Below, piece by piece: positions 3,354-19,735 of a stretch of 64,000 bases of DNA. The stretch lies in assembly GCF_965237495.1 (NCBI RefSeq), contig NZ_OZ250143.1, forward strand, positions 1,866,130-1,930,129. The letters run 5' to 3'. Numbering within the stretch: position 1 is the stretch's first letter; every line of letters begins with the position of its first letter. The translations under genes and the position numbers were made by a program. The notes below the pieces were generated by a model. It saw only the letters and a list, made by a program, of their open reading frames with translations, did not search any database and was not told the origin of the DNA. The DNA comes from Candidatus Palauibacter sp. Its GTDB lineage: Bacteria; Gemmatimonadota; Gemmatimonadetes; Palauibacterales; Palauibacteraceae.

Positions 3354-4511
3354 TTGCCGACAAGCCCACTGCGCCTGGTCGAGGTGACGCTGCGAGAGAT
3401 CGAACTGCCCCTGAAGGAGCGGTTCGTCATTTCGTCGGGATGGATGGAGAATCGCCGCATCCTCCTGCTCGAACTCCGCGACGAAAGCGGCGTCACGGCC
3501 TGGTCGGAGTGCGTCTGCGGCGACCTTCCCAACTACTCCCCCGAGACGGTGGACACCGCATGGCTCGCGCTGCGGCTCTGGCTTCTGCCCCGGATCCTCG
3601 GGCGGGAGATCGAAGGGCCGGGGGTCGTGAAGGCCCTTCTGGACGACGGGGTGCAGGGGCATCCGATGGCCAAGGCGGCGATCGAGATGGGAGTCTGGGG
3701 ACTGGCCGCGGAGGCTGCGGGGGTCTCTCTCTCCCGGCTCGTGGGCGGGACGCGGAGCCGGGTCCCGACGGGGATTTCCATCGGTCTCCAGGCCTCGCCC
3801 GCGGACCTCGTGGCGAAGGCGAGGCAGGCGGTCGATCAGGGCTACAGAAAGGTCAAGCTCAAGATCAGTCCCGAGAAGGACCTCGAGTACGTCGCCGCCG
3901 TCCGCGAGGCCCTGGGGCCGCAGACCCCGCTCGCCGTCGACGCGAACGCGGCCTACACGCTGGAGGATGCGGACCACCTGGCGAGGCTGGACGCGTTCGA
4001 CCTCATCATGATCGAGCAGCCGCTCGCGGCCGGAGACCTCGTGCGCCACGCGCGACTCCAGGAACGGATCGACACCCCGCTCTGCCTCGACGAATCGATC
4101 GTCGACCCGGCCACCTGCGAGGACATGCTCGCGCTCGGGAGCGGCCGGATCGTGAACATCAAGCCGGGGCGGGTCGGCGGGTTCCGGAGCGCCCGGCGGA
4201 TCCACGACATCTCCCGGGACGCCGACGTCCCGGTCTGGTGCGGCGGCATGCTGGAGAGCGGGATCGGCCGGGCCTACAACGTCGCCCTCGCCTCGATGCC
4301 GAACTTCGAACTCCCCGGTGACCTGTCGCCGAGCGCCCGCTACTGGACGCGGGACATCGTGACGCCCGAATGGACGATGAGCTCGGACGGCTTCGTGACC
4401 GTGCCCCGCGACCGGCCGGGCCTCGGCGTCGAAGTGGACACCGAACGCGTCGAGGCGCTCACGCGCCGGTCCGAGACGTTCGCCGCGGCCGCCCCCGGCG
4501 TCCCGTCGTGA
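3354..4511 (+). CDS. enolase-superfamily enzyme of the o-succinylbenzoate synthase / N-succinylamino-acid racemase (OSBS/NSAR) family
   Basis: TTG start 3354 with GGAGA upstream; KxK motif (KVKLKI); metal-ligand residues D (AVDANAAY), E (IEQP), D (LCLDES); second catalytic Lys in NIKPGRVGG. Confidence 0.7.
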   Translation: MPTSPLRLVEVTLREIELPLKERFVISSGWMENRRILLLELRDESGVTAWSECVCGDLPNYSPETVDTAWLALRLWLLPRILGREIEGPGVVKALLDDGVQGHPMAKAAIEMGVWGLAAEAAGVSLSRLVGGTRSRVPTGISIGLQASPADLVAKARQAVDQGYRKVKLKISPEKDLEYVAAVREALGPQTPLAVDANAAYTLEDADHLARLDAFDLIMIEQPLAAGDLVRHARLQERIDTPLCLDESIVDPATCEDMLALGSGRIVNIKPGRVGGFRSARRIHDISRDADVPVWCGGMLESGIGRAYNVALASMPNFELPGDLSPSARYWTRDIVTPEWTMSSDGFVTVPRDRPGLGVEVDTERVEALTRRSETFAAAAPGVPS

Positions 4512-5320
4512 CCGAGTTCCGCCCGCTGGAGACGCTCGACGACCTGCGCGCGTGCGTCCGCCTCCAGCGAACGACCTGGGGGGAGGGGTTCGCGGACATC
4601 GTGCCCGCGTCCGTCCTGCAGGTATCGCAGAAGATCGGCGGCTTCGCGGGAGGAGCGTTCGAGGAGGACCGTCTCATCGGTTTCGTCTATTCGCTTCTCG
4701 GGCGTTTCGAAGGCAACGAGGCGCACTGGTCCCACATGCTGGCCGTTCATCCGTCCGCGCGCGGGGGCGGGCTGGGCCGGGAGCTGAAGCTGTGTCAGCG
4801 CGAGGCTGTCCTCTCGAGCGGGATCGGCACCATCTTCTGGACCTACGACCCCATGGTGGCCCGCAACGCGCATGTGAACCTGAACCGGCTCGGCGCGACG
4901 GTGCTTCGCTACGTGCCGAACATGTACGGCTCGGATACGGGGAGCCCCTTGCACGCCGGGGGCGATACCGACCGGTTCATAGTCCGGTGGGATCTCGACG
5001 GACCGGAGACCCGCCGGGCGCTCGAGGAGGGATCCGCGAGGTCCGCCGGCCGTCTCGCGGTTCCGTTGCCGGATCCGGCCCACGTCGTGCCGCGGCCGGA
5101 CGGAATACAGGGGGCGGGCGACGGACTGCCCGGGGGTGAGGAGGTGTTCGTCGAGATTCCGGCGAATGTCGAATCGCTGCCCCCCGACGGAGCGCTGACA
5201 AGGTGGCGCGAGACCGTGCGCGACGCGGTCTTGACCTATCTCAGGAGGGGATATGAAGTGCAGAGCCTGGTCGCGAACCTCGCGGCGGATCGCTGCTTCT
5301 ACGTCCTGCGTCGGAACTGA
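4508..5320 (+). CDS. GNAT-family acyltransferase, translationally coupled to the OSBS/NSAR gene
   Basis: GTG 4508 overlaps the upstream stop (GTGA); acyltransferase-fold motif HMLAVHPSARGGGLGRELK; the ORF-track start at 4370 lies inside the upstream gene and is rejected. Confidence 0.55.
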   Translation: MTEFRPLETLDDLRACVRLQRTTWGEGFADIVPASVLQVSQKIGGFAGGAFEEDRLIGFVYSLLGRFEGNEAHWSHMLAVHPSARGGGLGRELKLCQREAVLSSGIGTIFWTYDPMVARNAHVNLNRLGATVLRYVPNMYGSDTGSPLHAGGDTDRFIVRWDLDGPETRRALEEGSARSAGRLAVPLPDPAHVVPRPDGIQGAGDGLPGGEEVFVEIPANVESLPPDGALTRWRETVRDAVLTYLRRGYEVQSLVANLAADRCFYVLRRN

Positions 5321-5324
5321 CGCC

Positions 5325-7448
5325 ATGAGCCAGGCGCAGAGTTCGCGGCGCACGCAGGCGGCCACCGCCGGGATGTGGGCCTTCCTCGCGTCCCTCGCCG
5401 CGGCCGGTGCGGAAGCCCAGACGCCGTACACCGTCGAGGACATCCTCTCCGCCCCCTTCGCGACGGATCTCGTCGCCGCGCCCTCGGGCTCGGCCTTCGC
5501 CTGGGTCGGGTACGACCGCGGCGCCCGCGGCATCTGGGTCGCCGAAGGGCCCGATTTCGTCGGCCGTCAGCTTGCGGCCTGGTCCGAGGACGACGGACAG
5601 GATCTGTCGCAACTGCGGTTCACGCCGGACGGGCGTCAGATCGTTTTCGTGCGCGGCGGCGGGCCGAACCGCGCCGGGGAAATCCCGAATCCGCGCTCCG
5701 AGCCGGAGCCGGCGAGCCGGATGGTGTGGGTCGCGTCCCTCGATGGCGCCGCCGGGCCGCTCGCGGAAGGGACGTCACCCGCCATCTCCCCCGATGGCCG
5801 AACCGTCGCGTTCCTGAACCGCGGGCAGGTCTACACCGTGACGCTCGACGGGTCGGAGCCCGCGGGCTCCCTTCTCCGCATCCGCGGCAGTGCGGGGTCG
5901 CTCACCTGGTCTCCAGAGGGGGACCGGCTGGCCTTCGTGAGTAACCGCGGCGATCACGCGTTCGTCGGCGTATTCGGGCTCGACGACCGATCCGTCCGCT
6001 ATCTGAACCCGAGTCTGGACCGGGACGGCGACCCCGTGTGGTCTCCGGACGGAACCCGGATCGCCTTCATCCGCATCCCCAACGAGGGGGGACGACTCCC
6101 GTTCTCGCCCATCCGCAGCGCCCTCCCCTGGTCCATCCGCGTGGCCGACCTCGAGACGGGGACGGCGCGCGAAGCGTGGCGCGCGCTGCCGGGCAGCGGC
6201 AGCGCCTTCCAGGGCGTGAGCGGACCCGCGCTGGTGTGGCTCGCCTCGGACCATTTCGTGTTCCCGTGGGAGCGCACGGGCTGGCAACATCTGTACTCGG
6301 TCCCGGTGGCGGGCGGCCAGGCGACGCACCTCACGCCGGGTGATTTCGAGGTGGAATACGTACTCCCCGCGCCCGACGGAGAATCCGTCTATTTCTCATC
6401 CAACGAGGGCGATATCGACCGACGGCACCTGTGGCGCGTGGCCCCCGGGGGAACGCCCGAGGCCCTCACTTCGGGAACCGGTATCGAGTGGAGCCCCGCC
6501 GTGACGGCGGACGGCGTACTGGGCTTCATCGCTTCCGACGGGCGGACGCCGGCCCACGCCGAGGTCCAGACGGGAGGGGAGCGGCGGCCGCTCATGGACG
6601 CCTTCATGCCGGACAGCTTCCCGTTCGAGAGCCTTGTGGAACCGCAACAGGTCATGTTCCGCTCAGAGGACGGGATGCTCATCCACGGGCAGCTCTTCCT
6701 TCCCTCCGCCGGCGCGGAGGGGCGCCGGCCCGCCGCCATCTTCTTCCACGGCGGGTCGAGGCGTCAGATGCTGCTCGGCTGGCATTACCTGCGCTACTAC
6801 CACAACACCTACGCGCTGAACCAGTACCTCGCGAGCCGCGGCTACGTCGTCCTATCGGTGAACTATCGCAGCGGCACGGGCTACGGCCTCGATTTCCGGG
6901 AGGCGCTGAACTACGGGGCGCGCGGGGCCAGCGAGTACAGGGACGTGATCGCGGCGGGCCACTACCTCGCCGAGCGCGACGACGTCGACCCGAACCGGAT
7001 CGCGCTCTGGGGCGGCTCCTACGGCGGCTACCTCACGGCGCTCGGGCTCGCTCGGAACTCCGACGTGTTCGCGGCCGGGGTCGACATCCACGGCGTACAC
7101 GACTGGAACGTCGTCATCCGCAACTTCGTGCCGTCCTACCAGCCCGAGACGCGAGAAGCCTTCGCGCGGCTCGCCTTCGAGTCTTCCCCCATGGCCTGGA
7201 TCGACGGCTGGCGCTCTCCGGTGCTTTTGATCCACGGTGACGACGACCGCAACGTGCCCTTCTCCGAGTCCGTGGACCTGGTCGAGTCGCTCCGCTCGCG
7301 CGGCGTCGAAGTCGAGCAGCTCGTCTTCCCCGACGAGGTGCACGGTTTCCTCCTGCACCGGAACTGGCTCGAGGCTTTCGAGCGCGCGGCGGCGTTCCTG
7401 GAGGCGCATCTCGGCGAGTCGGCAAACGCGGGAGGCGCGAGGCCTTGA
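5325..7448 (+). CDS. S9-family serine peptidase (acylaminoacyl-peptidase / prolyl oligopeptidase type) with N-terminal beta-propeller
   Basis: ATG 5325 lies 5 nt after the upstream stop; signal-like N-terminus; TolB-like SPDG repeats; nucleophile motif GGSYGGYLT; C-terminal IHGDDDRNVP / HGF. Confidence 0.75.
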   Translation: MSQAQSSRRTQAATAGMWAFLASLAAAGAEAQTPYTVEDILSAPFATDLVAAPSGSAFAWVGYDRGARGIWVAEGPDFVGRQLAAWSEDDGQDLSQLRFTPDGRQIVFVRGGGPNRAGEIPNPRSEPEPASRMVWVASLDGAAGPLAEGTSPAISPDGRTVAFLNRGQVYTVTLDGSEPAGSLLRIRGSAGSLTWSPEGDRLAFVSNRGDHAFVGVFGLDDRSVRYLNPSLDRDGDPVWSPDGTRIAFIRIPNEGGRLPFSPIRSALPWSIRVADLETGTAREAWRALPGSGSAFQGVSGPALVWLASDHFVFPWERTGWQHLYSVPVAGGQATHLTPGDFEVEYVLPAPDGESVYFSSNEGDIDRRHLWRVAPGGTPEALTSGTGIEWSPAVTADGVLGFIASDGRTPAHAEVQTGGERRPLMDAFMPDSFPFESLVEPQQVMFRSEDGMLIHGQLFLPSAGAEGRRPAAIFFHGGSRRQMLLGWHYLRYYHNTYALNQYLASRGYVVLSVNYRSGTGYGLDFREALNYGARGASEYRDVIAAGHYLAERDDVDPNRIALWGGSYGGYLTALGLARNSDVFAAGVDIHGVHDWNVVIRNFVPSYQPETREAFARLAFESSPMAWIDGWRSPVLLIHGDDDRNVPFSESVDLVESLRSRGVEVEQLVFPDEVHGFLLHRNWLEAFERAAAFLEAHLGESANAGGARP

Positions 7449-8224
7449 CGGCCCGCATCGCGGGGCAACTCGCGCTCGTCACCGGGGCCAGCGCGGGGAT
7501 CGGCGAGGCCATCGCGCGCCGGATGGCCCGCGATGGCGCGAACCTCGTGCTGTGGGCCCGCCGCTCGGACCGGCTCGCACAGCTGGCGGAGGAGATCGCC
7601 TCGACCACCGGGGTGAACGTGCAGACCGGTGTCGTCGATGTCCGCGATCACGAGGCCGTGGTGGCCGAGGCGGACCGGCTCATGGCCGAGACCGGGGCGC
7701 CCGACATCGTCATCAACAACGCCGGGCTCGCCGCGGGCATGGCGCTCGTTCAGGACGCCGAGGTCGACGACTGGAACCGCATGATCGACACGAACGTGAA
7801 GGGGCTGCTGTTCGTGACGCGCGCCTTCCTGCCGGCCATGGTCGCGCGGGACTCGGGCCATGTGGTCAATATCGGGAGCATCGCGGGCCGGCAGGTCTAC
7901 CCGGGCGGGAGCGTCTACTGCGCCTCGAAGTACGCCGTCCAGGCGCTCACCGAGGGGTCGAACCTCGACGTCCTGGGTACGGGGGTTCGCGTGTCGGGGG
8001 TCAACCCCGGAATGGTCGAGACCGAGTTCTCCCTCGTCCGCTTCGGCGGCGACGCTGCACGCGCCCGGGCGGTGTACGAGGGCACGCATCCCCTTCGACC
8101 GGAGGACGTAGCGGAGGTGGTCTCCTTCGTGCTCAACGCCCCACCCCACATCAACGTGGCCGACGTCATCGTCCTCTCGAACAGCCAGGGCAGCATACAC
8201 CACATCCACCGCGACGGGGGATGA
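7445..8224 (+). CDS. SDR-family NAD(P)-dependent oxidoreductase
   Basis: TTG start overlapping the upstream stop (TTGA); TGASAGIG, NNAG, catalytic YCASK. Confidence 0.8.
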   Translation: MTARIAGQLALVTGASAGIGEAIARRMARDGANLVLWARRSDRLAQLAEEIASTTGVNVQTGVVDVRDHEAVVAEADRLMAETGAPDIVINNAGLAAGMALVQDAEVDDWNRMIDTNVKGLLFVTRAFLPAMVARDSGHVVNIGSIAGRQVYPGGSVYCASKYAVQALTEGSNLDVLGTGVRVSGVNPGMVETEFSLVRFGGDAARARAVYEGTHPLRPEDVAEVVSFVLNAPPHINVADVIVLSNSQGSIHHIHRDGG

Positions 8225-8991
8225 GCGTCGCAGGGATCGCCGGACTCTTCATCGCCTGTCGGGACCCGGTTCACGTCCGCGAATGGTACCACCACCACCT
8301 CGGGCTCCGGTTCTCCGAGGGTGAGGGCGCACGTTTTTTCTGGCGTGAGGCCGACAGCGGAAGGCTCGCCGTCAGCCATCTCGATTTCCTCGACGAGACC
8401 ACCTCGTCCTTCCACCCCGGTACACAGCCGTTCATGGTTCGCTACCGGGTTCGCGACCTCGAGACGCTGGCCGATACACTGCGCGCAGGCGGCGACGACC
8501 TGACGATTCAGCACGGTCGGGGCGGGGGGATCATCGATCCGAACGGCCAGCGGGTGGAACTCCTGGAGGCGGTCGAACCGCCCGGACGTTCCGTCGACCA
8601 CGGGCGGGTGCAGGGGATCGGGGGCGTCTTCTTCCGCTCGCCCGACCCGGCCTCGCTGAAGACGTGGTACGCGAAGCTCGGGATCCGTCCGGGGCCTGAC
8701 GGATACGTTACGTTCCCGGCCAGTTCACCAGACGGGAGCGAGACGTTCACGGCCTGGGAAGTCTTCCCTTCGGACACCACCTACTTTGACTCCCGGGGGG
8801 AGCGCAGCCCGCACCCCTTCATGCTCAACCTGCGCGTGGCGGATCTCGACGGATTCGTGGAGAGGCTGCGCGCGGCAGGTGTGTGGGTCGATCCGAACAT
8901 CGAGTCCTACGACTACGGAAAGTTCGCCTGGATCGTGGACCCCGTCGGCGCCCGGGTCGAACTCTGGGAGCCCGCTCCGACCGCGAGCTGA
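8221..8991 (+). CDS. VOC (glyoxalase/bleomycin-resistance/dioxygenase) family protein, two-domain
   Basis: ATG 8221 overlapping the SDR stop (ATGA); 256 aa; its last ~75 codons recur at 13356..13586. Confidence 0.6.
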   Translation: MSVAGIAGLFIACRDPVHVREWYHHHLGLRFSEGEGARFFWREADSGRLAVSHLDFLDETTSSFHPGTQPFMVRYRVRDLETLADTLRAGGDDLTIQHGRGGGIIDPNGQRVELLEAVEPPGRSVDHGRVQGIGGVFFRSPDPASLKTWYAKLGIRPGPDGYVTFPASSPDGSETFTAWEVFPSDTTYFDSRGERSPHPFMLNLRVADLDGFVERLRAAGVWVDPNIESYDYGKFAWIVDPVGARVELWEPAPTAS

Positions 8992-9040
8992 CGCCGTTCC
9001 GGGCCCGGCGCCCCGCTCCTGGGTTCGCGCCACCGAACGC

Positions 9041-9082
9041 TTGACTCGTTCCGATATATCGTAGTATGTTTCGATATATCGA
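9041..9082 (+). promoter_or_regulatory. putative promoter plus paired palindromic PadR operator, copy A
   Basis: TTGACT (9041-46); palindrome CGATATATCG (9052-61) in the spacer; TAGTAT (9062-67); second palindrome TCGATATATCGA (9071-82); palindrome centres 20 bp apart; RBS and ATG at 9108. Confidence 0.5.
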
Positions 9083-9107
9083 GACCAGTCGGAACGAGGA
9101 GAGCGTG

Positions 9108-10176
9108 ATGTTTACGAATCGGGACGGTTTCGGCGCATGGGCGAACTGCTGCGGGCCCCGGCGTCTTCCGCTTCACCGGCGCCAGCGGGTTCGGCCCCAA
9201 ACGGCGCATCGTTCGGAAGGGCGACCTCAAGTTCGTCCTGCTCAGACTTCTCTCCGACGAGCCCATGCACGGCTACGAACTCATGCGGCGGCTGGAGGAG
9301 GAGTCGGGCGGGCTCTATACCCCGAGCCCGGGCTCCGTCTACCCCACCCTGCAGCTGCTCGAGGATCAGGGATACGTGTCCTCGACCCAGGAGGACGGCA
9401 AGCGCGTCTATCGGCTCACGGCCGAGGGTCGCGCCTTTCTCGACGAACACGGCTCCAGAACGCGCGACATCTTCGGCCGTTTCGTGAACATGGGCGAACG
9501 GTTCACCGGGTCGGCAATGCGCGAGGTCACGCGCTCCTTCATCCACCTCGCCCAGGTCAGCTTCGAACGGGCGACGGGCGGGCAGGGTGATCCCGAGACC
9601 CTGGCGAGAGTCAAGGCGATTCTCGACCGCGCCGCCCGCGAAATCGAGACCGCGTGGCCGGAACCGAGTCCCGCAGCATCCCGGGAGGTCCGAATCATGC
9701 TCGAATTGGCATTCCTGGGGATCATCGTTTTGGCGTTCTACCGTCGCCTCACGCGGTCGCGGGGATGGAGCCGGGCTGATTTGTGGCGGGCCCTGACCAA
9801 ACTGGAACGACGGCTGCGACGCGGGGTCGTCCCCGGTCGGCAGGCGGGACCAGGCCTGATGGCGCAATGCGCGGCCGATTTGAAGAGCCTGGGAGAGGAT
9901 ATGTTTGGGGTTGTCAGCCCTGAAGCCCGCGCTCGACTCCGACGAAGCGTCCGGAACCGGACATCTCGGCCGGCGCGGGGCCGGGTACACCGGAGTGACG
10001 GAGCGATGTCAGACGCGTCAGACCCCGCGTTCGCCCGGCTCCAGCGCCGCTATCTCGATGGACGGATCAGCCTCGAGGAATATGTGGAGGCGGCCCGGAG
10101 ACTCCGCAGCGGGAGACCGCCGCGCTTAGCCCGGTCGGACAGAAGAGGACACGCCTCCGCCGGTCTTAGCGGTTAG
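9108..10176 (+). pseudogene. PadR-family regulator copy A, frameshifted after codon ~15 and fused in frame to the downstream SHOCT-domain membrane protein
   Basis: ATG 9108 reads MFTNRDGFGAWANCC then leaves the PadR frame (extra G in a G-run plus a 6-nt indel at ~9150-9185 relative to copy B); the wHTH ([26 protein letters not shown]) is readable only in frame +1 from ~9217; no stop separates PadR from the TM+SHOCT part (REVRIMLELAFLGIIV...RLQRRYLDGRISLEEYVEAARRL). It could also be a sequencing error. Confidence 0.55.
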
Positions 10177-10243
10177 AAAGCCACAGCTTGGGCGGAGCCC
10201 GAGAGCGGCTCCCCAACCTAGAAGCGCTACCCCGGAATTCGCT

Positions 10244-11560
10244 GTGCCTGAGGTCCCCGAAACTGTTATCGTAGGTTGGGCGATTCGATTCGGTTGTTCT
10301 TGGCGTTGTTCAAAGGAAGAGGAGCGGGAGGTGGGGGTAGCGAGGGGAGCTTTTTCTAAGACCGCAGTCAATCGACGAGAGATCCCGCAGGCGGTCCTAG
10401 ACATCACCAGACGCGCGCGGGCCAATCCCTTGCCGTGGCGAGGCCAGTTTTCTCCGCAACTCGTGGATGCGCTGCTCGGACGGTACTGGCCTAGCGGCAC
10501 TACGGTCCTCGATCCGTTCATGGGGAGCGGCACCGTCTTGCTGGAATCGGGGCTCGTCGGAGCGTCCGCTAGAGGTGCCGAGGTGAACCCGGGCGCTCTC
10601 TTGTTGGCCCGACTCTACACGCTGATCAACATCGAACCTCCGGCACGCACCACGCTGCTTACAGATCTCGATTCGCGTCTCCGAGATCACTTTGGCGACG
10701 TATCGCTATTCAAGTCTACTCCAGGACTTCCGCAAGACCTCCAGCACCTGTGCGATTTCCGAGCGACTCTGGAGTTGGACGAACAAACCACACTGCTGGA
10801 TGCAGCGATTATTCTTTCGGATTTTCCACGAACTGCTGAGCCGGTCGACTTTCTGAGGCACTGGACCAAGGTGCGGGATCTCGTCCAGAAGTTGCCATAC
10901 TCCAAAGCCCCCATCGAGACGTTCGCCGCGGATGCCCGGGATCTACCGTTACCGAATGATGATGTGGGCCTCGTGATCACGTCACCACCTTACATCAACG
11001 TCTTCAACTATCATCAGCAATACCGAGGGTCGGTCGAAGGACTAGGCTATGATGTCTTAGATGCCGCACGATCTGAAGTTGGTTCGAATCGCAAGCACCG
11101 TCAGAATCGCTTCTTAACGGTCATCCAATACATCTTGGACCTGTCTCTAGCCATGAAGGAGATGACTCGCGTCGCTGCCAACGGAACTCGACTCATCCTC
11201 GTCGTTGGTCGCGAATCCAATGTGCTTGGGACGCCATTCTTCAACGGCGCCATCATAGCAGAGATTGGAAGTAAGGTGCTTGGCCTACCAATTACGTTGC
11301 GGCAGGAGCGGGTGTTCACAAATCGTTTCGGAAAGAGAATCTTCGAAGACATCCTGCATTTCGAGAACAAGCAGGTAAGCGGAGACGTTCTGGGCTCGGC
11401 TCGTATCCTTGCAGCAGAGGTCCTAGCTTCGGCTGTCCGACGTAGTGAACCGGGGGTTCGCCGCTTGATCGACGGTGCAGGAAAACAGATATTAGAGGTT
11501 GATCCCTCCCCCCGTTTCACAGGCCGGGCGGGACTCCCGGCCTCACCCCAAGTTGGATAG
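10244..11560 (+). CDS. DNA amino-methyltransferase (N6-adenine or N4-cytosine), R-M modification subunit
   Basis: Motif I DPFMGSGT (~aa 90) and motif IV ITSPPY (~aa 245); motif order I then IV (alpha-like); a GTG at 10331 has a better RBS (GAGGAG) and may be the true start. Confidence 0.75.
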   Translation: MPEVPETVIVGWAIRFGCSWRCSKEEEREVGVARGAFSKTAVNRREIPQAVLDITRRARANPLPWRGQFSPQLVDALLGRYWPSGTTVLDPFMGSGTVLLESGLVGASARGAEVNPGALLLARLYTLINIEPPARTTLLTDLDSRLRDHFGDVSLFKSTPGLPQDLQHLCDFRATLELDEQTTLLDAAIILSDFPRTAEPVDFLRHWTKVRDLVQKLPYSKAPIETFAADARDLPLPNDDVGLVITSPPYINVFNYHQQYRGSVEGLGYDVLDAARSEVGSNRKHRQNRFLTVIQYILDLSLAMKEMTRVAANGTRLILVVGRESNVLGTPFFNGAIIAEIGSKVLGLPITLRQERVFTNRFGKRIFEDILHFENKQVSGDVLGSARILAAEVLASAVRRSEPGVRRLIDGAGKQILEVDPSPRFTGRAGLPASPQVG

Positions 11561-11568
11561 GGACCCAG

Positions 11569-12483
11569 ATGGCACTCCCCACTCCTCATGGCGACAAGCT
11601 TCGGGCCCTTGCAGACAACCCGAAGCTCCCAACCGAAGACAGCCCGCGTGTCGCAGATGCGATTGGACGCTATGACAAATGGATTGAAGAGCTTGAAGAC
11701 GTCGACAATGAGAGTGCTACCGTTGTGACGGAGTTGGTGACTTTGCTGTCCAACTACAAGATGTCGGTGGATCTTGATCTTGTATTCGATAGCCCCGCAG
11801 ACTTTCTATACAGGCAGAAAGGCCAGATCAAGCTTGACAACACGATCTTGGAGGAATTCCTACCCTGGCTAGTTTGGGCCGTATTTTCGAGAGATTTGAA
11901 CGACCTTGACGTTCACCTTGGTCCCGCAACTTGTTTTTCTGCTGTCCAATTTGTGTCAGAACTGAGAGCGCCTGCTCCCGGCGGAGGTATGAGGGTGAGA
12001 TCCAAGGATCAGGATTTTGCTATCGCCCGAAAGATCTACCTCCGTACGTCGCATGAGCCAACATTTGAAGCAGTAACGGACGCAGAGGCAGCCATCGCCT
12101 ATCTTGTCGCGGAAATCAAGACCAACCTTGACAAAACCATGTTCCAAGAAGCCGCAGCCACGGCGGCCGACGTTAAGCTCGCTGTACCTGGCGCCCGTTA
12201 TCTTCTTCTCTGCGAATGGCTCGATATGACACCCATCCGGACAGCCGGTACGGCCATCGATGAAGTAGTGATACTGCGCAAGAGCAAGCGGCTCTCGTCA
12301 TCAGTCCGGCAGCACTTCGCAAACGCCGAGGGACGCCGCGCTTCTCGAGCGGCGTTCGAAGAACACTTAGTCTCCAACCCCTTCTCTACAGACTCGTTCC
12401 AGCGTCTTCTCAAGCATGTGGGGCAGCTAATGGCTGACCCCAACCTAAGCGAGCGCGGGATTCTGGAACGCGGCTGGTTCTAG
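11569..12483 (+). CDS. putative Type II restriction endonuclease (family unassigned)
   Basis: 304-aa ORF 8 nt downstream of the MTase on the same strand, GC ~50%; possible PD-(D/E)xK-like residues (D...EIK near aa 150-180); called mainly from context. Confidence 0.4.
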   Translation: MALPTPHGDKLRALADNPKLPTEDSPRVADAIGRYDKWIEELEDVDNESATVVTELVTLLSNYKMSVDLDLVFDSPADFLYRQKGQIKLDNTILEEFLPWLVWAVFSRDLNDLDVHLGPATCFSAVQFVSELRAPAPGGGMRVRSKDQDFAIARKIYLRTSHEPTFEAVTDAEAAIAYLVAEIKTNLDKTMFQEAAATAADVKLAVPGARYLLLCEWLDMTPIRTAGTAIDEVVILRKSKRLSSSVRQHFANAEGRRASRAAFEEHLVSNPFSTDSFQRLLKHVGQLMADPNLSERGILERGWF

Positions 12484-13352
12484 CCTGAATCGGTCAAGCC
12501 GAGTTTCTCCGTGATACTCACTACCGGTGCCAGGGGCTCCGGGTGAAGCCTGACTCCGTCATCTCCTTGATCTGCGGCGCCAGGAATATGAGCGCGATCA
12601 GGTTCGGAATGGATGACGATGGCCAGGAACACGTCTCCCAGCGCCCACATCACAGCCAGCGGCAGGACGGCACCAATGAAGTGCATCGCGACGAACACGA
12701 GCTTGCACGGGATGATTCACGCGGCCCGAACAGGTAGTTCGCACAGCGGTCGCCGTAGTAGCTCCACGAGATCGCGGTGGAGATGGCGAACAGGAACACC
12801 GAGAAGATCACGATGTAGTGGCCCCAGTCGCCGAGCGGCGCAGTCCCCGCTGGAACCCCATCTGGGTCAGGGGCGCGCCCGTCTCGTAGGCCTGCCCGTA
12901 CAGCACCGTCAGCTCCCGCCCGTCGTCGGTGATCGCAACCCGCGCGCGCCGGGTCCACGGCGGCGCTGAACGGCTGGTCGTGCGCCTCATCCTCGAACAA
13001 CTGCGGCACCGAGACCTCGTGCCACGCTTACGTGCGGCTCGCTCGTCACGCCCGGCCGCCCCAGCGTGTAGCGGATCGTCCCCGTGGGATCGGTGGGCAC
13101 CGAGGAGCCGCCTTCGTCGAGGACGACGTAGCTCAGATCCCCGCCCTCAAGCGCGATCTCGGTGTCGACCTGTTCATTCCAGGCCCCGGTCATGATCACG
13201 ACGAGCTCAGTCATGGTCGCGATGAACGATCGTGTCGATGAACGGCTCGAGCAGCGCGACGACCCCATCGGAGACCGGCTCATCGGTCTTCCCCGCCGCG
13301 TGCGCGATCGGCGCCGAGCCCTGCCCCACCTCGCTCGAGAACAGTCCGCTGG
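12483..13352 (-). pseudogene. fragment of a Na+:alanine symporter gene (C-terminal ~half), broken by several frameshifts
   Basis: Pieces across three minus frames match the intact gene at 14839..15740: [40 protein letters not shown]; TGAWNEQVDTEIALEGGDLSYVVLDEGGSSVPTDPTGTIRYTLGRPGVTSEPHV; [16 protein letters not shown]...[35 protein letters not shown]; [25 protein letters not shown]. Confidence 0.75.
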
Positions 13353-13355
13353 GAG

Positions 13356-13586
13356 GTGTTCCCCTCGAACACGACCTACTTCGACTCGAAGGGCGAGCCG
13401 AGCCCCCACCGCTACATGCCAAACCTGCGCGTCCAGGACCTCGACGGGCTCGTCGCGTCGCTACGCGGAGGCGGCGTCTGGGTCGACCCGAACACGGAAG
13501 CCTGCGAGTACGGGAAGTTCGCCTGGATCGTCGACCCCACGGGCGCACGCGTCGAACTGTGGGAGCCCGCTCCCGCCGCGAGCTGA
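13356..13586 (+). pseudogene. detached duplicate of the VOC gene 3' end (76 codons)
   Basis: [76 protein letters not shown] matches the C-terminus of the VOC protein at 8760..8991; no N-terminal domain present. Confidence 0.7.
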
Positions 13587-13635
13587 CGCCTTCGCCGGCC
13601 CGCCCCCCCGCTTTCTCCTCCCGCGTTCTCGCCTC

Positions 13636-13677
13636 TTGACACATCGCGATATATCGAGATAGTGTTCCGATATATCG
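13636..13677 (+). promoter_or_regulatory. putative promoter plus paired palindromic PadR operator, copy B
   Basis: TTGACA (13636-41); CGATATATCG at 13647-56 and 13668-77 (centres 21 bp apart); GGAGG RBS; ATG 13715. Confidence 0.5.
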
Positions 13678-13714
13678 AGACACGTCGGCACGGTTAGCGT
13701 ACGGAGGACGAGCG

Positions 13715-14293
13715 ATGTTCACGAACCGAGACGGACTCGGCGCCTGGGCGAACTGCTGTGGCCCCGGCGTCTTCCGCTTCTCCGGAGGCTTCGGCCCCAA
13801 GCGGCGGATCGTTCGAAAGGGCGAACTGAAGTTCGTCCTCCTCCGGCTCCTCGCCGACGAGGCGATGCACGGCTACGAGCTGATGCGGCGGCTGGAGGAG
13901 GAGTCCGGCGGGCTCTATACGCCGAGCCCGGGCTCCGTATACCCCACCCTGCAATTGCTCGAAGACCAGGGCTACGTCTCCTCGACGCAGGAGGACGGCA
14001 AGCGCGTCTACCGGCTCACGTCCGAGGGCCACGCCTTCCTCGAGGAACACGGCTCCCGGACCCGCGACATCTTCGGCCGCTTGGTGAACATGGGCGAGCG
14101 TTTCACCGGGGCCGCGATGCGCGAGGTCACGCGCTCGTTCATCCACCTCGCCCAGGTGAGCTTCGAGCGGGCCACGGGCGGGCACGGCGATCCGGAAACT
14201 CTGGCGAGGGTAAAGGCAATCCTCGACCGTGCCGCCCGCGAGATCGAGACCGCGTGGCCGGAGCCCGGATCCGCCGTGACCCGGGAGGCGTGA
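13715..14293 (+). CDS. PadR-family transcriptional regulator (intact copy B)
   Basis: 192 aa; w[57 protein letters not shown]; GGAGG RBS. Confidence 0.85.
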
Positions 14294-14296
14294 GCC

Positions 14297-14758
14297 ATGT
14301 TTGAATTCGCGCTTCTGGGAGTGATCGCGGTATGGCTCTGCCGTCGCCAGGGCTGGGGTCGGGCCGACCTGCAACGAGCCCTCGGCAAGCTGGGGCGTGT
14401 GGGCCGGAGCGCCATCGCTACCACGCATCGAGCCTTGCCTGGCCTGCTCGCGCAGTGCGCGGCGGACATGAAGGGCCTCGTGGAGGACACCGCCCGGTTC
14501 CTGCCTTCGGGCGCGCGGGCTCGTCTCGAACGGCGCGCGCGGAAACCCTCGACCCGCTCCAACCGCGGTCTTGACCGGGCCCCCGTCCGCGACGGCGGCA
14601 GAGCCATCGCGACCGCGAGCCCGAGACCCGAAGACCGGGCCGTCGCCCGCCTCCAGCGCCACTATGTCGACGGCCGCATCAGCCTCGAGGAATACGTCGA
14701 GGGCGCCGGCAGGCTCCGGACGGGGAGTCCCCGGACCCTCGCCCGTCCGCCGCGGTAG
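14297..14758 (+). CDS. small membrane protein with C-terminal SHOCT domain, co-transcribed with PadR
   Basis: Starts 4 nt after the PadR stop; N-terminal TM helix MFEFALLGVIAVWLC; C-terminal ARLQRHYVDGRISLEEYVEGAGRL (SHOCT-like). Confidence 0.6.
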   Translation: MFEFALLGVIAVWLCRRQGWGRADLQRALGKLGRVGRSAIATTHRALPGLLAQCAADMKGLVEDTARFLPSGARARLERRARKPSTRSNRGLDRAPVRDGGRAIATASPRPEDRAVARLQRHYVDGRISLEEYVEGAGRLRTGSPRTLARPPR

Positions 14759-14838
14759 GCTGTCCCGGGAAGAGTCCGCCGACGCGACCGTCGCACGTCG
14801 GCAACGACGCCTCTGCCGGCGCTACATGACCGTACGAC

Positions 14839-16536
14839 CTACCGTCCGCGCTGACGCTGCCAAGGACTGCGAGTGAAGTAGGACTCCGTCATCTCCTTGA
14901 TCTTCGGCGTCAGGAAGATGAGCGCGATCAGGTTCGGGATGATGACGATGGCCAGGAACACGTCGCCCAGCGCCCACACCACGGCCAGCGGCAGAACCGC
15001 ACCGATGAAGTGCATCCCGACGAACACGAGCTTGTAGGGGATGATCGCGCGCTGCCCGAACAGGTAGTTCGCGCAGCGGTCGCCGTAGTAGCTCCAGGAG
15101 ATCGCCGTCGAGATCGCGAACAGGAACACCGAGAAGATCACGATGTAATGGCCCCAGTCGCCGAGCGGCTCGAGGCCCCTCCGGAACCCCATCTGCGTCA
15201 GCGGCGCGCCCGTCTCGTAGGCCTGCCCGTACAGCACCGCCAGCTCCCGCCCGTCGTCGGCGACCGCCACTTCACGCGCCGGGTCGACGGCGCCGCTGAA
15301 CGGCTGCGTGTGCGCCTCGTCCTCGAACAACTGCGAAACGGAAACCTCGTGCCACGCCACGTGCGGCTCGCTCGTCACGCCCGGCCGCCCCAGCGTGTAG
15401 CGGATCGTCCCGGTCGGGTCCGTGGGCACGGAGCTGCCGTCTTCGTCGAGCACCACATAGCTCAGATCCCCGCCCGCGAGTGCCATCTCGGTGTCGACCT
15501 GTTCGTTCCAGGCCCCGGTCATGATCACGACGAGCGCCGTCATGGTCACGATGACGATCGTGTCGATGAACGGCTCGAGCAGCGCGACGACCCCTTCGGA
15601 GACCGGCTCATCGGTCTTCGCCGCCGCGTGCGCGATCGGCGCCGAGCCCTGCCCCGCCTCGTTCGAGAACAGCCCGCGCCGCACGCCCCACATCAGCGTG
15701 ACGAGGAACGCGCCCACGCCGGTGCCGGCCACCCCGGCGGTCGGATTGAACGCCTCCCGGAAGATGAGCGCGAAGGTTCCCGGCACCTGGTCGAGGTTGA
15801 GGATGATGATGAGCATCGCGGCGCTCACGTAGAGGATCGCCATGGCCGGGGCGAGGATGCTCGTGACGCGGCCGATGCGCTTGATCCCGCCCAGGATCAC
15901 GAGCGCGACGAGCGTTGAGGTGGCGAGCCCGGTCATCCACTTGGCGATCCCGAATTCGGACAGCATCGCGTCCGCGACCGTGTTCGCCTGGTTGGCGTTC
16001 CCCGTGAGGAAGGCCGTCAGCCCCAGCATGACCGCGAAGAACGCCGCCACGGGCTTCCAGCGCGGACCGAGTCCCTTCTCGATGTAGTACATCGGTCCGC
16101 CGGACACCGTCCCGCTGTATTTCGCCGAGGATTCGTCGACCTCGCGGTACCTCTGCGCCAGCGTAACCTCGCTGAACTTCGTCGCCATGCCGAGGAAGGC
16201 CGTCATCCACATCCAGAACAGCGCCCCCGGCCCTCCGAGATGGATCGCGATCGCGGCGCCGGCGATGTTCCCGATCCCCACCGTGGCGCTGAGCGCGGTG
16301 GTCAGCGCCTGGAAGTGCGAAACGTCGCCCGGATCGTCCGGGTCGTCGTAGCGGCCGGTGGCGACCGCGACGCCGTGCGCGAACTTGCGGATCTGCGGCA
16401 GGCCCAGCTTCAGCGTGAGGTAGGTCCCGATGCCGAGGAGGAGCAGGACCTGAAGCGTCAGGCGCTCTCCAGCGATCGTGATCCCGAACTGCGCGATGTT
16501 CCGGTCGAGCCAGTCGACGATTGTGGCGAAGTCCAT
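14839..16536 (-). CDS. sodium:alanine (amino acid) symporter, AGCS family, with a ~115-aa hydrophilic insertion
   Basis: Start ATG (cat at 16534-36) gives MDFATIVDWLDRNIAQFGITIAGE...GIGNIAGAAIAIHLGGPGALFWMWMTAFLGMATKFSEV, the canonical AGCS N-terminus; 565 aa; the ORF-track N-terminal extension to 17874 is rejected. Confidence 0.85.
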   Translation of the reverse strand: MDFATIVDWLDRNIAQFGITIAGERLTLQVLLLLGIGTYLTLKLGLPQIRKFAHGVAVATGRYDDPDDPGDVSHFQALTTALSATVGIGNIAGAAIAIHLGGPGALFWMWMTAFLGMATKFSEVTLAQRYREVDESSAKYSGTVSGGPMYYIEKGLGPRWKPVAAFFAVMLGLTAFLTGNANQANTVADAMLSEFGIAKWMTGLATSTLVALVILGGIKRIGRVTSILAPAMAILYVSAAMLIIILNLDQVPGTFALIFREAFNPTAGVAGTGVGAFLVTLMWGVRRGLFSNEAGQGSAPIAHAAAKTDEPVSEGVVALLEPFIDTIVIVTMTALVVIMTGAWNEQVDTEMALAGGDLSYVVLDEDGSSVPTDPTGTIRYTLGRPGVTSEPHVAWHEVSVSQLFEDEAHTQPFSGAVDPAREVAVADDGRELAVLYGQAYETGAPLTQMGFRRGLEPLGDWGHYIVIFSVFLFAISTAISWSYYGDRCANYLFGQRAIIPYKLVFVGMHFIGAVLPLAVVWALGDVFLAIVIIPNLIALIFLTPKIKEMTESYFTRSPWQRQRGR

Positions 16537-16824
16537 GCGCTTTTCCTGTTGAGCTGCCGGTGGCAGGGAGTTGCGCTGAGTTTGGCCCCCGGCAGCCGGG
16601 GCTGCAACCGGGAGCGGTTCGCCGGTCCGCCGATGACGGGCCGGCCGGTACCTGCCGCGCCACCCCCGGATCGGTAAGTTCGTTCGCGCCAGCGGCGGCC
16701 CGGAGCCGGCGTCGCTCCAACACCCGGCCCCGAAACCACATCCGACACACCCACCGGAAGCACGCAAGGGGAGACGTGGGCCCAGACTTCGAGCCGATGA
16801 CGGTGACGCGATGACAGTGAGGCA

Positions 16825-18945
16825 ATGACGGTGGACGCACGCGGTCCCGGCCTGCCGGCCCGGATCGGGCGGCTGTGGGAGTTCGCGACCAACCTCTCGT
16901 GGACGTGGAACCGGGAGGCCCGGTCCGTCTTCCGCGCCATCGACCCGCCGCTGTGGCGTCGCTCGCTGAACAACCCCGTGGCGCTGCTTCGGGAGGTCGG
17001 GGACGCGCGCCTTCGCGCCCTGGCCGGGGATCCGGCGTTTCTGCCGCGCTACGACGCACTGTGCGCAGCGGTGGACGCGGCTGCGAGCCGCGAGTCGACC
17101 TGGTTCCAGCGGCGATACCCCGAGTTCGCCGCCACCCCGATCGCCTATTTCTGCGCCGAGTTCGCTCTGCACGAGTCCATCCCCATCTACTCCGGAGGGC
17201 TCGGGGTGCTGGCCGGAGATCACCTGAAGGCCGCTTCGGAACTCGGCGTCCCTCTCGTAGGCGTAGGCCTGATGTACGCGCACGGCTACTTCGACCAGAC
17301 GCTGGGCCCCGACGGCTGGCAGGAGGACGCCGATGATCCGCTCGATCCCCGGCTGACGCCGCTCGAGCGGCTGCGCGGGGCGGACGGCGTGCCCTGGCTC
17401 ACATGGATCCAGGGCGCGGGCCGACGCATCCACGTCGGAGCCTGGCGGGTCCGGGTCGGCCGCGTGCCGCTGTACCTGCTCGACACGGACCTGGACGAGA
17501 ACGACCCGGCGGACCGCGGCCTCTCGCACCAGCTGTACGCGGGTGGCGTCGACCACCGGCTGCGCCAGGAAGCGCTCCTCGGCGTCGGGGGGGTGCGGGT
17601 CCTCGCGGCGCTCGGGATCGAGCCCAGGGCGTGGCACGCCAACGAGGGCCACGCGGCGTTCATGATGGTCGAACGGGTACGCGGCCTCATTCGGGAGGGT
17701 CTTCCCTTCCCGGACGCCGTGGCCCGCGTGCGGGCCTCGACCGCATTCACCACGCACACGCCCGTGCCCGCCGGTCACGACGTGTTCTCCCACTCTCAGA
17801 TGCGGGACTGGACGGGCGAGAAGTTCTGGGAAGAGATCGAGGCGCGGGACGAACTTCTGGGGCTGGGGCTTCATCCGGACGACGAGGGACGCGACCGCTT
17901 CAACATGACGGCGGCCGCGATCCGGCTGTCACGGAGGGTGAACGGCGTCTCCGCGCGCCACGGCCACGTCAGCCGGGAGATCTGGCGCGGATTGTGGGCG
18001 AACCGGCCGGCCGGGGATGTCCCCATCCGGCACGTCACGAACGGCGTACACCTCGGGACGTGGATGCACGAGGACATCGTCCGTCTGCTGGACGACCACC
18101 TCCCGGCGGAGGCCCTGTGGCGGGTGCGCCGGCGGCTCAAGCTCAGACTCCTCGACCTGATGCGCGAAGAGGCCCGGGGCCGTTGGCGCGAACACTGGCC
18201 GGAAGCGGAGCACCTCGTCGGGGCGGGCACGCTCATGAGCCCGTATCCGCTCACGATCGGCTTCGCGCGGCGCTTCGCAGCCTACAAGCGCGCGGACCTC
18301 ATCTTCCGCGACCGCGACCGGTTGCTGGCGCTGCTCTCGGATCCGCGCCGGCCGGTGCAACTGATCTTCGCGGGGAAGGCGCACCCGCGGGATGACGAGG
18401 GCAAGCGGGTCCTGCAGCGCGTCTACGAGCACACCCGTGACCCCCGGTTCGAGGGACGGATCGCCTTCATCGAGAACTACGGGCTCCACACGGCCCATCG
18501 TCTCGTCGAGGGCGTCGACCTGTGGCTCAACCTGCCCCGGGTCCCGCTGGAGGCGAGCGGGACGAGCGGGATGAAGGCCGCGCTCAACGGCGTACCCCAA
18601 CTCGCGACGAACGACGGATGGTGGGAGGAGGGATTCGAGGGAGACAACGGCTGGATCCTGCCGCGCGCGCCGGAAGACGCGACCGAGGAGGAGACGGACC
18701 GCCACGATCACGAGCACCTCTTCCGCCTTCTCGAGGACGAGGTCGTCCCCCTCTTCTACGACCGGCCGGGCGAGGGCTCATGGGACGACGCCCCCGCGGG
18801 CTGGCTCGAGCGGGCGCGGCGGGCCATCGAGGTGGCCGGCGCGCGGTTCACGGCCCAACGCATGGTGCGAGAGTACGCCCGCGACTACTACGTCCCGGCG
18901 CTGCGTGGACTCTCCGATGGCGACGACCCGCCGACTCACATGTAG
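16825..18945 (+). CDS. glgP: alpha-glucan (glycogen/maltodextrin) phosphorylase, GT35, ~700-aa type
   Basis: FCAEFALHESIPIYSGGLGVLAGDHLKAASELGVPLVGVGLMYAHGYF; 706 aa. Confidence 0.85.
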   Translation: MTVDARGPGLPARIGRLWEFATNLSWTWNREARSVFRAIDPPLWRRSLNNPVALLREVGDARLRALAGDPAFLPRYDALCAAVDAAASRESTWFQRRYPEFAATPIAYFCAEFALHESIPIYSGGLGVLAGDHLKAASELGVPLVGVGLMYAHGYFDQTLGPDGWQEDADDPLDPRLTPLERLRGADGVPWLTWIQGAGRRIHVGAWRVRVGRVPLYLLDTDLDENDPADRGLSHQLYAGGVDHRLRQEALLGVGGVRVLAALGIEPRAWHANEGHAAFMMVERVRGLIREGLPFPDAVARVRASTAFTTHTPVPAGHDVFSHSQMRDWTGEKFWEEIEARDELLGLGLHPDDEGRDRFNMTAAAIRLSRRVNGVSARHGHVSREIWRGLWANRPAGDVPIRHVTNGVHLGTWMHEDIVRLLDDHLPAEALWRVRRRLKLRLLDLMREEARGRWREHWPEAEHLVGAGTLMSPYPLTIGFARRFAAYKRADLIFRDRDRLLALLSDPRRPVQLIFAGKAHPRDDEGKRVLQRVYEHTRDPRFEGRIAFIENYGLHTAHRLVEGVDLWLNLPRVPLEASGTSGMKAALNGVPQLATNDGWWEEGFEGDNGWILPRAPEDATEEETDRHDHEHLFRLLEDEVVPLFYDRPGEGSWDDAPAGWLERARRAIEVAGARFTAQRMVREYARDYYVPALRGLSDGDDPPTHM

Positions 18946-18982
18946 CGGCCCACCCCCGGAGGGAAGGCGGCGGCTCGCGCTC

Positions 18983-19735
18983 CTAGCGGGGCGGCAGCAG
19001 TTCGTCCAGGTAGCGGAGCAGCATGTTGCGCCATGTGGGCCAGTCGTGGTGCCAGTCTTCGCCCCAGTCGTCCACCCGGTTCGGCACGCCCTTCCCGCCC
19101 AGCCGCGACGCCATGCGCCACGATTCGTCGATGTCCTCGGCGCGCCCGCGTCCTGACGCGAAGAGGGCGAACCGTTCCCGCAGCCGGTCGAGCGTCTCAC
19201 CCGTGAGATCCGGCAGGTAGTGCAGAGGGGACGCGTGGTAGAAGTCTTCCGTGATCCCCGCCCGAATCCCGGTCTCGTGCTTCAGGAACCGCTCCAGGTC
19301 GTAGGTCCCGCTCATGCAGAGCGCGTGCGAGAAGGCGTCCGGGAAGCGGCACAGCATGGCCAGCGCGTGGAAGGCCCCGATGGAGGATCCCGCCGCCATC
19401 ACGTCGATCGACGGGTCGTTGCAGTCGTCCTGGATCCAGGGGACGAACTCGTAGCCGACGAAATCCTGGAATCGGTTGAGCACGCGCATGCGGTGCTCGG
19501 GCGTCCCCTCCTGGCCGAGCATGGCGCGTCCGGCCACGCTGTCGCACGAATAGACCTTGAGACGACCGTCCGTGAGGTAGTCCGCCACCGTGTCGATGAC
19601 GAGGAAGCGCTCGATCTCCTCCGCGTCGCCGGCGGCGGTGGGGAACATGAGGAGGGGGACGCCGACCTCGCCCCAGCGGACGACGTCGACTTCCTGCTCG
19701 AGACGGTCCGACCACCAGCTGGCGATGAGTTTCAT
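18983..19735 (-). CDS. alpha/beta-hydrolase esterase (PF00756-like)
   Basis: Start ATG (cat 19733-35) overlapping the upstream stop (ATGA); MKLIASWW...; GxSxG as AGSSIGAF; 250 aa. Confidence 0.6.
   Translation of the reverse strand: MKLIASWWSDRLEQEVDVVRWGEVGVPLLMFPTAAGDAEEIERFLVIDTVADYLTDGRLKVYSCDSVAGRAMLGQEGTPEHRMRVLNRFQDFVGYEFVPWIQDDCNDPSIDVMAAGSSIGAFHALAMLCRFPDAFSHALCMSGTYDLERFLKHETGIRAGITEDFYHASPLHYLPDLTGETLDRLRERFALFASGRGRAEDIDESWRMASRLGGKGVPNRVDDWGEDWHHDWPTWRNMLLRYLDELLPPR

Follow-up and report, generated by a model that had tools for sequence, protein, structure and literature searches.

Insertion of restriction-modification (R-M) genes with a long target duplication is said to have been described by Nobusato et al. 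in 2000, and to our knowledge the mechanism by which such duplications arise has never been established. Homology-facilitated illegitimate recombination (HFIR), a RecA-dependent integration of linear DNA acquired through transformation or conjugation, was reportedly described by de Vries and Wackernagel (2002), Prudhomme et al. (2002), and Meier and Wackernagel (2003). Both processes bear on a locus of Candidatus Palauibacter sp. that we analyzed in a 64,000-nt stretch of contig NZ_OZ250143.1 (positions 1,866,130 to 1,930,129; hereafter, the window), in which an R-M gene pair lies between repeated copies of a chromosomal neighborhood made up of a VOC gene, padR, a SHOCT-like gene (shoct) and a Na+:alanine symporter gene. 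We conclude, with a probability of about 0.7, that the locus consists of two alleles of this neighborhood, from two Palauibacter lineages, which were joined head to tail by a single recombination event.

In the catalogued R-M insertions with long target duplication, the R-M genes are directly flanked by two near-identical copies of the target, 46 to ~420 bp in length (e.g. 417/423), and the left and right repeats share about 93–100% identity (Furuta, Abe and Kobayashi, 2010; PMC2853133). Such insertions were recognized by the presence of both R and M homologues in an insert of <20 kb, by the lack of other mobility genes, and by flanking direct repeats of >30 bp that are single-copy in an R-M-free genome (PMC2853133). 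In HFIR, one end of the incoming DNA undergoes homologous recombination and the opposite one illegitimate recombination, and the insertion is coupled with a deletion; in the laboratory, insert and deletion average about 1 kb each, and three of four E. coli clones were joined without microhomology (PMC3240628). HFIR has also been proposed for type VI secretion system (T6SS) effector–immunity loci and Rhs loci, where an incoming allele is placed beside the resident one and the old genes are pushed downstream as orphans (PMC5361080).

Self-BLASTN of window positions 8000–17000 detected two pairs of direct repeats. The first pair extends over 8754–~10140 and 13350–~14758, co-linear and head to tail; it aligned at 80.0% nucleotide identity over 1018 nt with 10 gaps (8754–9748 against 13349–14348) and resumed at 78.8% identity further on (10020–10118 against 14632–14730). 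Open reading frames (ORFs), Pfam matches and alignments gave its order as the last ~78 codons of the VOC gene, an intergenic region, padR and the SHOCT-like gene. The second pair (12525–13349 against 14855–15677; 89.8% identity over 827 nt with 6 gap openings) corresponds to the last ~275 codons of the symporter gene, which is carried on the minus strand. With the first repeat designated A and the second B, the order of the locus is A-RM-B'-A'-B. The segment between the repeats has a GC content of 55.8%, as against 69% in the flanks, and a GC content at third codon positions of ~60%, as against 82–94%; it contains a DNA methyltransferase gene and a restriction endonuclease gene. Ahead of each padR copy, two CGATATATCG palindromes are paired 20–21 nt apart, at 9052..9081 and 13647..13677. 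These four occurrences (9052, 9072, 13647 and 13668) are the only ones in the 64 kb, where 0 were expected, and the pairs are probably a PadR autoregulatory operator. An earlier reading of this DNA, made without database searches (the sequence-only reading), had described the co-linear repeats, the operator palindromes in both of them, the frameshifted repeat of the symporter 3' end and the low-GC R-M segment, for which it had suggested a GC scan, and the alignments and GC values agree with it on all of these. The identity of the two PadR copies, which it put at ~93%, was measured as 92% at the amino acid (aa) level. Among small coordinate corrections, the symporter piece, which does carry single-base insertions and deletions (indels), is bounded by 12521–13349 (829 nt).

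To place the two copies, relatives were collected by a one-genome-per-species scan with the symporter protein, which placed the window in Candidatus Palauibacter (Gemmatimonadota) and yielded 16 close loci, and a further locus, L166 (on a 2.0-Mb contig), was found with the VOC protein; many of the related genomes come from sponge metagenomes. The genomes closest to the window are L001 (NZ_OZ244149.1) and L002, which are 94–100% identical to it at 4000–8200 and 95–100% identical at 13350–22000. Both of them, and about a dozen others, have a single padR–shoct–symporter unit without R-M genes, i.e. an empty site, which in L001 and L002 is of the recipient type, as the sequence-only reading had anticipated for related genomes. 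Window positions 8300–10140, however, are only 68–88% identical to L001/L002 but 92–99% identical to L006 (NZ_CBDANE010000004.1) and 93–100% identical to L166, two genomes that are only ~79–89% identical to the window in the surrounding genes. The left padR shows 95.1% and the whole tract 93.8% identity to L006/L166. Similarly, the symporter fragment is 92–93% identical to L006/L166, as against 87% to L001, and has 20 derived states that are private to L006 as against only 2 that are derived in L001/L002. The right-hand copy aligns with L001 at 96.4% identity and without indels, and in a neighbor-joining tree the left padR grouped as sister to that of L006 and the right padR as sister to that of L001. 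The mutual identity of the left and right copies is only 80–85%. As judged from these sequence comparisons, the left-hand tract almost certainly comes from another lineage; we refer to it as donor-type, and to the right-hand copy as resident.

The foreign tract is ~5.05 kb long (8299..13349); it takes in most of the VOC gene and runs through padR, shoct and the R-M cassette into the 3' end of the symporter gene. To locate the left end of the tract, we scored the sites at which L001 and L006 differ. The window is of the L001 type up to 8298 (and at one further site, 8310) and of the L006 type from 8301/8313, which places the boundary at 8299..8313. This boundary lies inside the VOC gene (8221..8991, plus strand; intact, 256 aa, VOC/glyoxalase family, Pfam PF00903), in single-copy sequence about 450 nt to the left of the repeat edge at 8754. 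The gene is chimeric, its first ~80 nt being of the recipient type and the remainder of the donor (L006/L166) type, and the 90% cluster of its protein includes the VOC proteins of L166 and L006. Since foreign-type sequence is present outside the repeat, the tract was imported rather than duplicated. The right end is an illegitimate junction at 13349..13350, where an interior position of the donor symporter gene, corresponding to 15677, abuts an interior position of the resident VOC gene, corresponding to 8755, with a microhomology of 0 nt relative to the L001-type VOC gene and 1 nt relative to the donor type. Of the resident VOC gene, about 450 nt (equivalent to 8300–8754) are missing, and what remains is the last 78 codons (237 nt), at 13350..13586 on the plus strand.

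This arrangement could have been produced in two steps. In a donor resembling L006 and L166, the low-GC R-M cassette would have entered at the ends of the convergent SHOCT-like and symporter genes. Linear donor DNA comprising the VOC gene, padR, shoct, the R-M genes and the last ~830 nt of the symporter gene would subsequently have entered an ancestor closely related to L001/L002, where its left end would have recombined in homologous sequence, either the 3' end of the upstream short-chain dehydrogenase (SDR) gene or the 5' end of the VOC gene, with the detectable switch at 8299–8313. At its right end, an illegitimate joint without microhomology would have formed with an internal position of the resident VOC gene (13349/13350). 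The outcome would be an insertion of ~5.05 kb and a deletion of ~450 nt, leaving the R-M pair and a VOC gene that is chimeric but intact, together with redundant donor copies now undergoing decay. The two-allele product itself is evident from the alignments; the first step, the order of the two steps and the route of the second are what we infer from it.

The sequence-only reading had accounted for the same layout differently, proposing that the window's own unit of voc-3', padR, shoct and symporter-3' had been duplicated, that the R-M pair had then been inserted into the left unit, and that this unit had decayed. The co-linear, head-to-tail order of the repeats suits such a duplication, of which 13349/13350 could be the novel joint, and so do the frameshifts in the left padR and in the symporter piece. 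Two copies that arose in place would, however, be each other's closest relatives and their divergence would be confined to the duplicated unit; here, the copies have different nearest relatives, and the divergent sequence overruns the repeat by 450 nt into the single-copy part of the VOC gene. Moreover, the VOC remnant is 98.7% identical to the functional L001 gene but only 79% identical to the adjacent intact copy. A further test made use of the truncated copies, which should have evolved neutrally since a duplication, with an expected pairwise ratio of nonsynonymous to synonymous divergence (dN/dS) of ~0.5. The ratio was 0.19 for the symporter fragment and the intact gene, with 46 of 72 differences at third positions (P = 2.5e-4, binomial test against omega = 0.5), and 0.16 for the VOC remnant and the intact gene, with 28 of 48 at third positions (P = 7.8e-3). 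These low ratios indicate that the divergence arose mostly while both members of each pair were working genes, in separate genomes. An ancient duplication followed by reciprocal loss in L001 and L006 was also considered, but it is unparsimonious and is contradicted by the 98.7% identity of the remnant and by the low dN/dS. Taken together, the nearest relatives, the 450-nt overhang and the low ratios leave a tandem or long target duplication of the window's own sequence very little room, and we consider it highly improbable. From the earlier account, the insertion of the R-M pair at the shoct/symporter junction can be retained, but its placement in the left unit of a duplication cannot; likewise, the left unit is indeed decaying, with a padR frameshift and fusion and symporter indels, but the low dN/dS indicates that this decay is not the main source of the divergence between the copies.

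Three other explanations retain the two lineages or dispense with them altogether. The polarity may have been the reverse of that proposed above, the donor-type allele with its R-M pair being the resident and an L001-type fragment (the VOC 3' end, padR, shoct, the symporter gene and beyond) being the newcomer; the right end of this fragment would have been exchanged by homology within the symporter gene or past it, and its left end would have formed an illegitimate joint inside the resident symporter gene. Because the product is symmetrical, the junction and the layout fit this polarity equally well, and the intact symporter gene, in which recipient-type, donor-type and ancestral states are mixed up to about 16400 and purely L001-type states follow past 16500, could mark the zone of exchange. 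Two events would then be required, however, since the locus must first have been replaced by the donor-type allele, and in the two closest genomes, L001 and L002, the allele is of the L001 type and the site is empty. The symporter mosaic, moreover, is in large part made up of derived patches in L001/L002 and not of donor tracts in the window, and we consider the reverse polarity unlikely. Somewhat less likely still is a late insertion, in which the donor tract would have been captured without R-M genes and the cassette would have entered the redundant copy afterwards, in the lineage of the window. We found no donor-clade genome with the cassette, the donor-type site of L166 is empty, and landing in redundant DNA would be neutral, all of which would accord with this sequence of events. 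On the other hand, the cassette lies exactly at the boundary of the convergent ORFs, where the symporter fragment has an in-frame stop at the cassette edge (12521–12523) that shortens the protein by only 4 codons. Such precision is expected under selection, and it suggests that the cassette was inserted while the symporter gene was still functional, i.e. in the donor. Furthermore, a redundant 5-kb tract without the cassette would have no obvious reason to persist, and the same junction holds other cargo in L006, a member of the donor clade. The remaining explanation is an assembly artefact, i.e. a chimeric contig built from the reads of two Palauibacter strains that occurred together. The genome was assembled from a metagenome, and the homology of the sequence around the left switch could allow an assembler to pass from one strain to the other. 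The right joint, in contrast, links non-homologous positions and would not be made without supporting reads, and the donor-type padR and symporter gene carry inactivating changes that are not expected in the intact locus of a free-living strain. In addition, a second contig that was assembled independently, L081 (an assembly contig from ENA, 32.9 kb, 4.03x), has an identical structure, being 99.98% identical over 19.6 kb with 4 differences and containing all three junctions. An artefact is therefore as improbable as a duplication in place. Exact look-ups of the resident PadR protein and of the chimeric VOC protein returned the same two contigs only.

Several observations nevertheless weigh against the proposed import into an L001-type recipient. 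The tract differs by 5–6% from L006 and L166, so neither genome is the donor. The R-M cassette was not found in an intact donor context in any genome searched, and for this reason the first step and the order of the steps are stated conditionally. At the left switch, the two alleles, with L006 as proxy for the donor, are only ~75–80% identical and have short runs of identity. This would be a poor RecA substrate, so the exchange may have begun further left, where the alleles are 95–98% alike and markers are few. The microhomology of 0–1 nt at the right joint falls short of the 3–10 bp that is usual in transformable bacteria. Finally, the mosaic symporter gene has donor-type patches, including one at 16006–16012, beyond the repeat, and more than one exchange may therefore have occurred.

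With respect to HFIR, the locus shows one import boundary that is homologous (the switch in the VOC gene, with the 3' end of the SDR gene 95–98% alike upstream), an illegitimate joint between non-homologous positions at 13349/13350, and, next to the anchor, a deletion of about 450 nt of recipient DNA between anchor and joint. The microhomology of 3–10 bp that is usual, but not obligatory, at the HFIR joint is absent (0–1 nt). From this analysis of the junctions, the odds somewhat favor HFIR as the route of the second step. A Campbell-type integration of circular DNA was rejected, because a circle recombining at ~8300 would leave donor-type sequence from a point at or before 8300 in the right copy, whereas this copy begins at the equivalent of 8755 and is L001-type from that base onward. 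Compared with the laboratory cases, the present one is a natural event, deduced in an uncultured symbiont of the Gemmatimonadota, with an insert of 5 kb and a deletion of 0.45 kb. It also differs in that the foreign part is a diverged homologue of the recipient locus, and it is this homology that makes the product look like a duplication. The orphan modules of T6SS and Rhs loci are similar in that an incoming allele, whose upstream part is conserved, takes its place beside the resident one; here, however, the cargo is an R-M pair rather than a toxin–immunity pair, there is evidence of a single round only, and it is the displaced resident genes (padR, shoct and the symporter gene) that are intact.

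The likeness to R-M insertions with long target duplication is also considerable. The R-M pair has no integrase or transposase and is missing from an otherwise co-linear relative, the long direct repeats consist of sequence that is single-copy in the R-M-free genome, and the cassette, at 2.4 kb, contains both R and M homologues and is well below the 20-kb limit (PMC2853133). The repeats, however, are 0.83 and 1.4 kb long and 80–90% identical, belong to two lineages, and are arranged so that the R-M pair is not directly flanked by copies of one target: its left flank is the end of shoct and its right flank the end of the symporter gene. Nor are the copies, at 80% and 89.8% identity and with different nearest relatives, derived from the recipient's own target. 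The locus is thus not the clear example of such an insertion for which the sequence-only reading had taken it.

The cassette is of foreign base composition and, by its domain content, a predicted type II R-M system composed of one methyltransferase and a single Bpu10I-family endonuclease. The DNA methyltransferase gene (10331..11560, plus strand; 409 aa) matched Pfam N6_N4_Mtase (34.3 bits; cut-off, 26.7) and PADLOC MTase_II (1.7e-18) and contains FMGSGT and SPPY motifs; its start is probably 10331 rather than 10244. The endonuclease gene (11569..12483, plus strand; 304 aa) matched PF09549 over its full length (E = 6.5e-85; 284.6 bits, with a cut-off of 25; profile positions 1–218 of 218), and NCBI lists the protein among those of a Candidatus Palauibacter sp. 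genome with a 4.29-Mb contig. Bpu10I itself is a heterodimer and is accompanied by two methyltransferases. The pair described here shares with that family the full-length match and a neighboring methyltransferase gene, but it has one R and one M gene, like the >2800 endonuclease homologues of 301–306 aa that were found in a search of 5.8 billion proteins. The same search returned only the window's own endonuclease and then, as the next best match, a protein with 75% identity, and the best match in a scan of JGI metagenomes was 58% identical; tblastn searches with the methyltransferase and the endonuclease against 80 related loci gave no match. The nearest homologue of the M–R pair, at L082:8648–10915 (and also in L083), is flanked by a CarboxypepD_reg-like gene and a TRAP transporter gene, in a context unrelated to the window locus. 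The core that it has in common with the cassette corresponds to 10216–12483, with 72% nucleotide identity and 75% aa identity for the endonuclease. Since the M–R pair in L082 is also of low GC content (58%, in a host of 68%), the cassette appears to move as a unit among high-GC hosts. The CTNAG-type heptamers CCTNAGG, CCTNAGC and GCTNAGC, considered as candidate recognition sites, occur 7, 16 and 12 times in the window, somewhat below the 13.7, 29.1 and 16.4 expected from shuffles that ignore codon structure; a CCTGAGG is present at 10247, a short distance upstream of the methyltransferase gene.

Relative to L166, whose donor-type site is empty, the R-M insertion occupies 10119..12523, where 2405 nt stand in place of ~30 nt that lie at the overlap of the convergent shoct and symporter gene ends. 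A search for terminal repeats or a target-site duplication at the cassette yielded only 10-nt matches at chance level and the 4-nt sequence CCGG at its edges, and neither integrase or transposase ORFs nor tRNA genes were found there. The CCGG occurs once at each edge (10132–10135 and 12524–12527) and could be a microhomology used at insertion or a chance match. That both R and M are intact beside decayed pseudogenes suggests that selection, for defence or for addiction, is acting on them. If recombination between the copies, which are 80–90% identical, were to delete the tract, the methyltransferase would be lost with it.

The same junction is occupied differently in the donor clade. In L006, a 3.7-kb high-GC insert (L006:11692–15414) carries three ORFs of 475, 250 and 386 aa, two of which look paralogous; their only match was a weak one to a 6-bladed beta-propeller. 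Since the site of the sister genome L166 is empty, the shoct/symporter junction looks like a recurrent point of insertion, and three states of it are seen among Palauibacter genomes. A more far-reaching idea, which we offer as speculation and think more likely wrong than right by a wide margin, is that this junction is a hotspot for cargo with which the flanking allele travels, and that selfish R-M pairs, dragging their flanks along through one-sided homologous capture, spread from one related species to another. If so, such dragging of flanks would create repeats of the sort catalogued as long target duplications, and addiction would guard the resulting arrays from collapse; if this held generally, many published target duplications of R-M systems would be juxtaposed alleles of two lineages.

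The locus itself belongs to known kinds, i.e. rearrangement linked to R-M genes and insertion–deletion of the HFIR type, and reveals no new kind of system. It shows an R-M pair without a mobility gene crossing between related species on its own chromosomal flanks, and documents gene flow among lineages of sponge-symbiont Gemmatimonadota that are about 15–20% diverged at the nucleotide level, in a region that is variable both in the presence or absence of the VOC gene and in the three states of the junction. Diverged direct repeats around an island may accordingly be the alleles of two lineages instead of a duplication, and three checks discriminate between these: what dN/dS the truncated copies show, which relative is nearest to each copy, and whether foreign-type sequence continues past the repeat.

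Among the donor-type genes of the foreign tract, padR and the symporter piece are decaying. The padR gene (9107..9693, plus strand) has a +1 frameshift caused by an extra C at 9156, within a run of C, relative to L006, and its stop has changed to CGA at 9691–9693, resulting in an in-frame fusion to the SHOCT-like ORF. The gene for the SHOCT-like membrane protein (9697..10176, plus strand; DUF1707 match below threshold) has a C-terminus altered by the R-M insertion. The symporter 3' fragment (12521..13349, minus strand; 829 nt) is a pseudogene that has its own stop at 12521–12523; it contains 5 indels of one base each, and its private substitutions, about 21 in number, are distributed over the codon positions. 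In the right copy, the resident padR (13715..14293, plus strand; 192 aa) is intact and 97.8% identical to that of L001, and is followed by the resident SHOCT-like gene (14297..14758, plus strand; 153 aa) and by the intact symporter gene (14839..16536, minus strand; 565 aa). The spacer between the stops of the latter two genes (14759–14838) is about 80 nt long, as compared with about 14 nt in L001/L002, and in L166 the genes overlap; thus, the ends of these convergent genes vary even without cargo.

The relative that best matches the intact symporter gene switches every 100–200 nt, and none is closest throughout; on this sequence evidence, the gene is a recombination mosaic among Palauibacter lineages. 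In one patch (14959–15006), six L006-private states are found both in this gene and in the nearby fragment, as could result from either gene conversion or mosaic integration. The dS of the symporter pair is 0.26, as against 0.56–0.81 for the other repeat. Gene conversion between the fragment and the intact gene may have lowered it; the patch at 14959–15006 is the one that fits, in a gene that is a mosaic among all of the lineages. A cluster of private changes was also observed in the intact gene at 15434–15484.

To the left of the tract, the SDR gene (7445..8224, plus strand) is of the recipient (L001) type. Its 3' two-thirds (about 7600–8200) are 95–98% identical in recipient-type and donor-type genomes, which makes this region a possible homologous anchor. 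The genes around it are only 79–89% identical between the L001 clade and the L006/L166 clade, the region 7600–8200 is 76–85% identical in other species, and a small patch of L006-type sites lies within the SDR gene at 7841–7900. The similarity of the SDR 3' region suggests that the two clades had already exchanged DNA at this locus at an earlier time. The VOC gene is accessory in Palauibacter, and about half of the related genomes lack it at the position between the SDR gene and padR; variability of this VOC-bearing position was seen at L002, L004, L005, L009, L012 and L014–L016, and ~200 nt of the gene are deleted in L002. Further upstream, the S9 peptidase gene (5253–7448) has an extra base in L081 (3678 region; window position 6514), where a protein of only 284 aa is called as against an intact ORF of 731 aa in the window, and this extra base is either a strain variant or an error due to low coverage.

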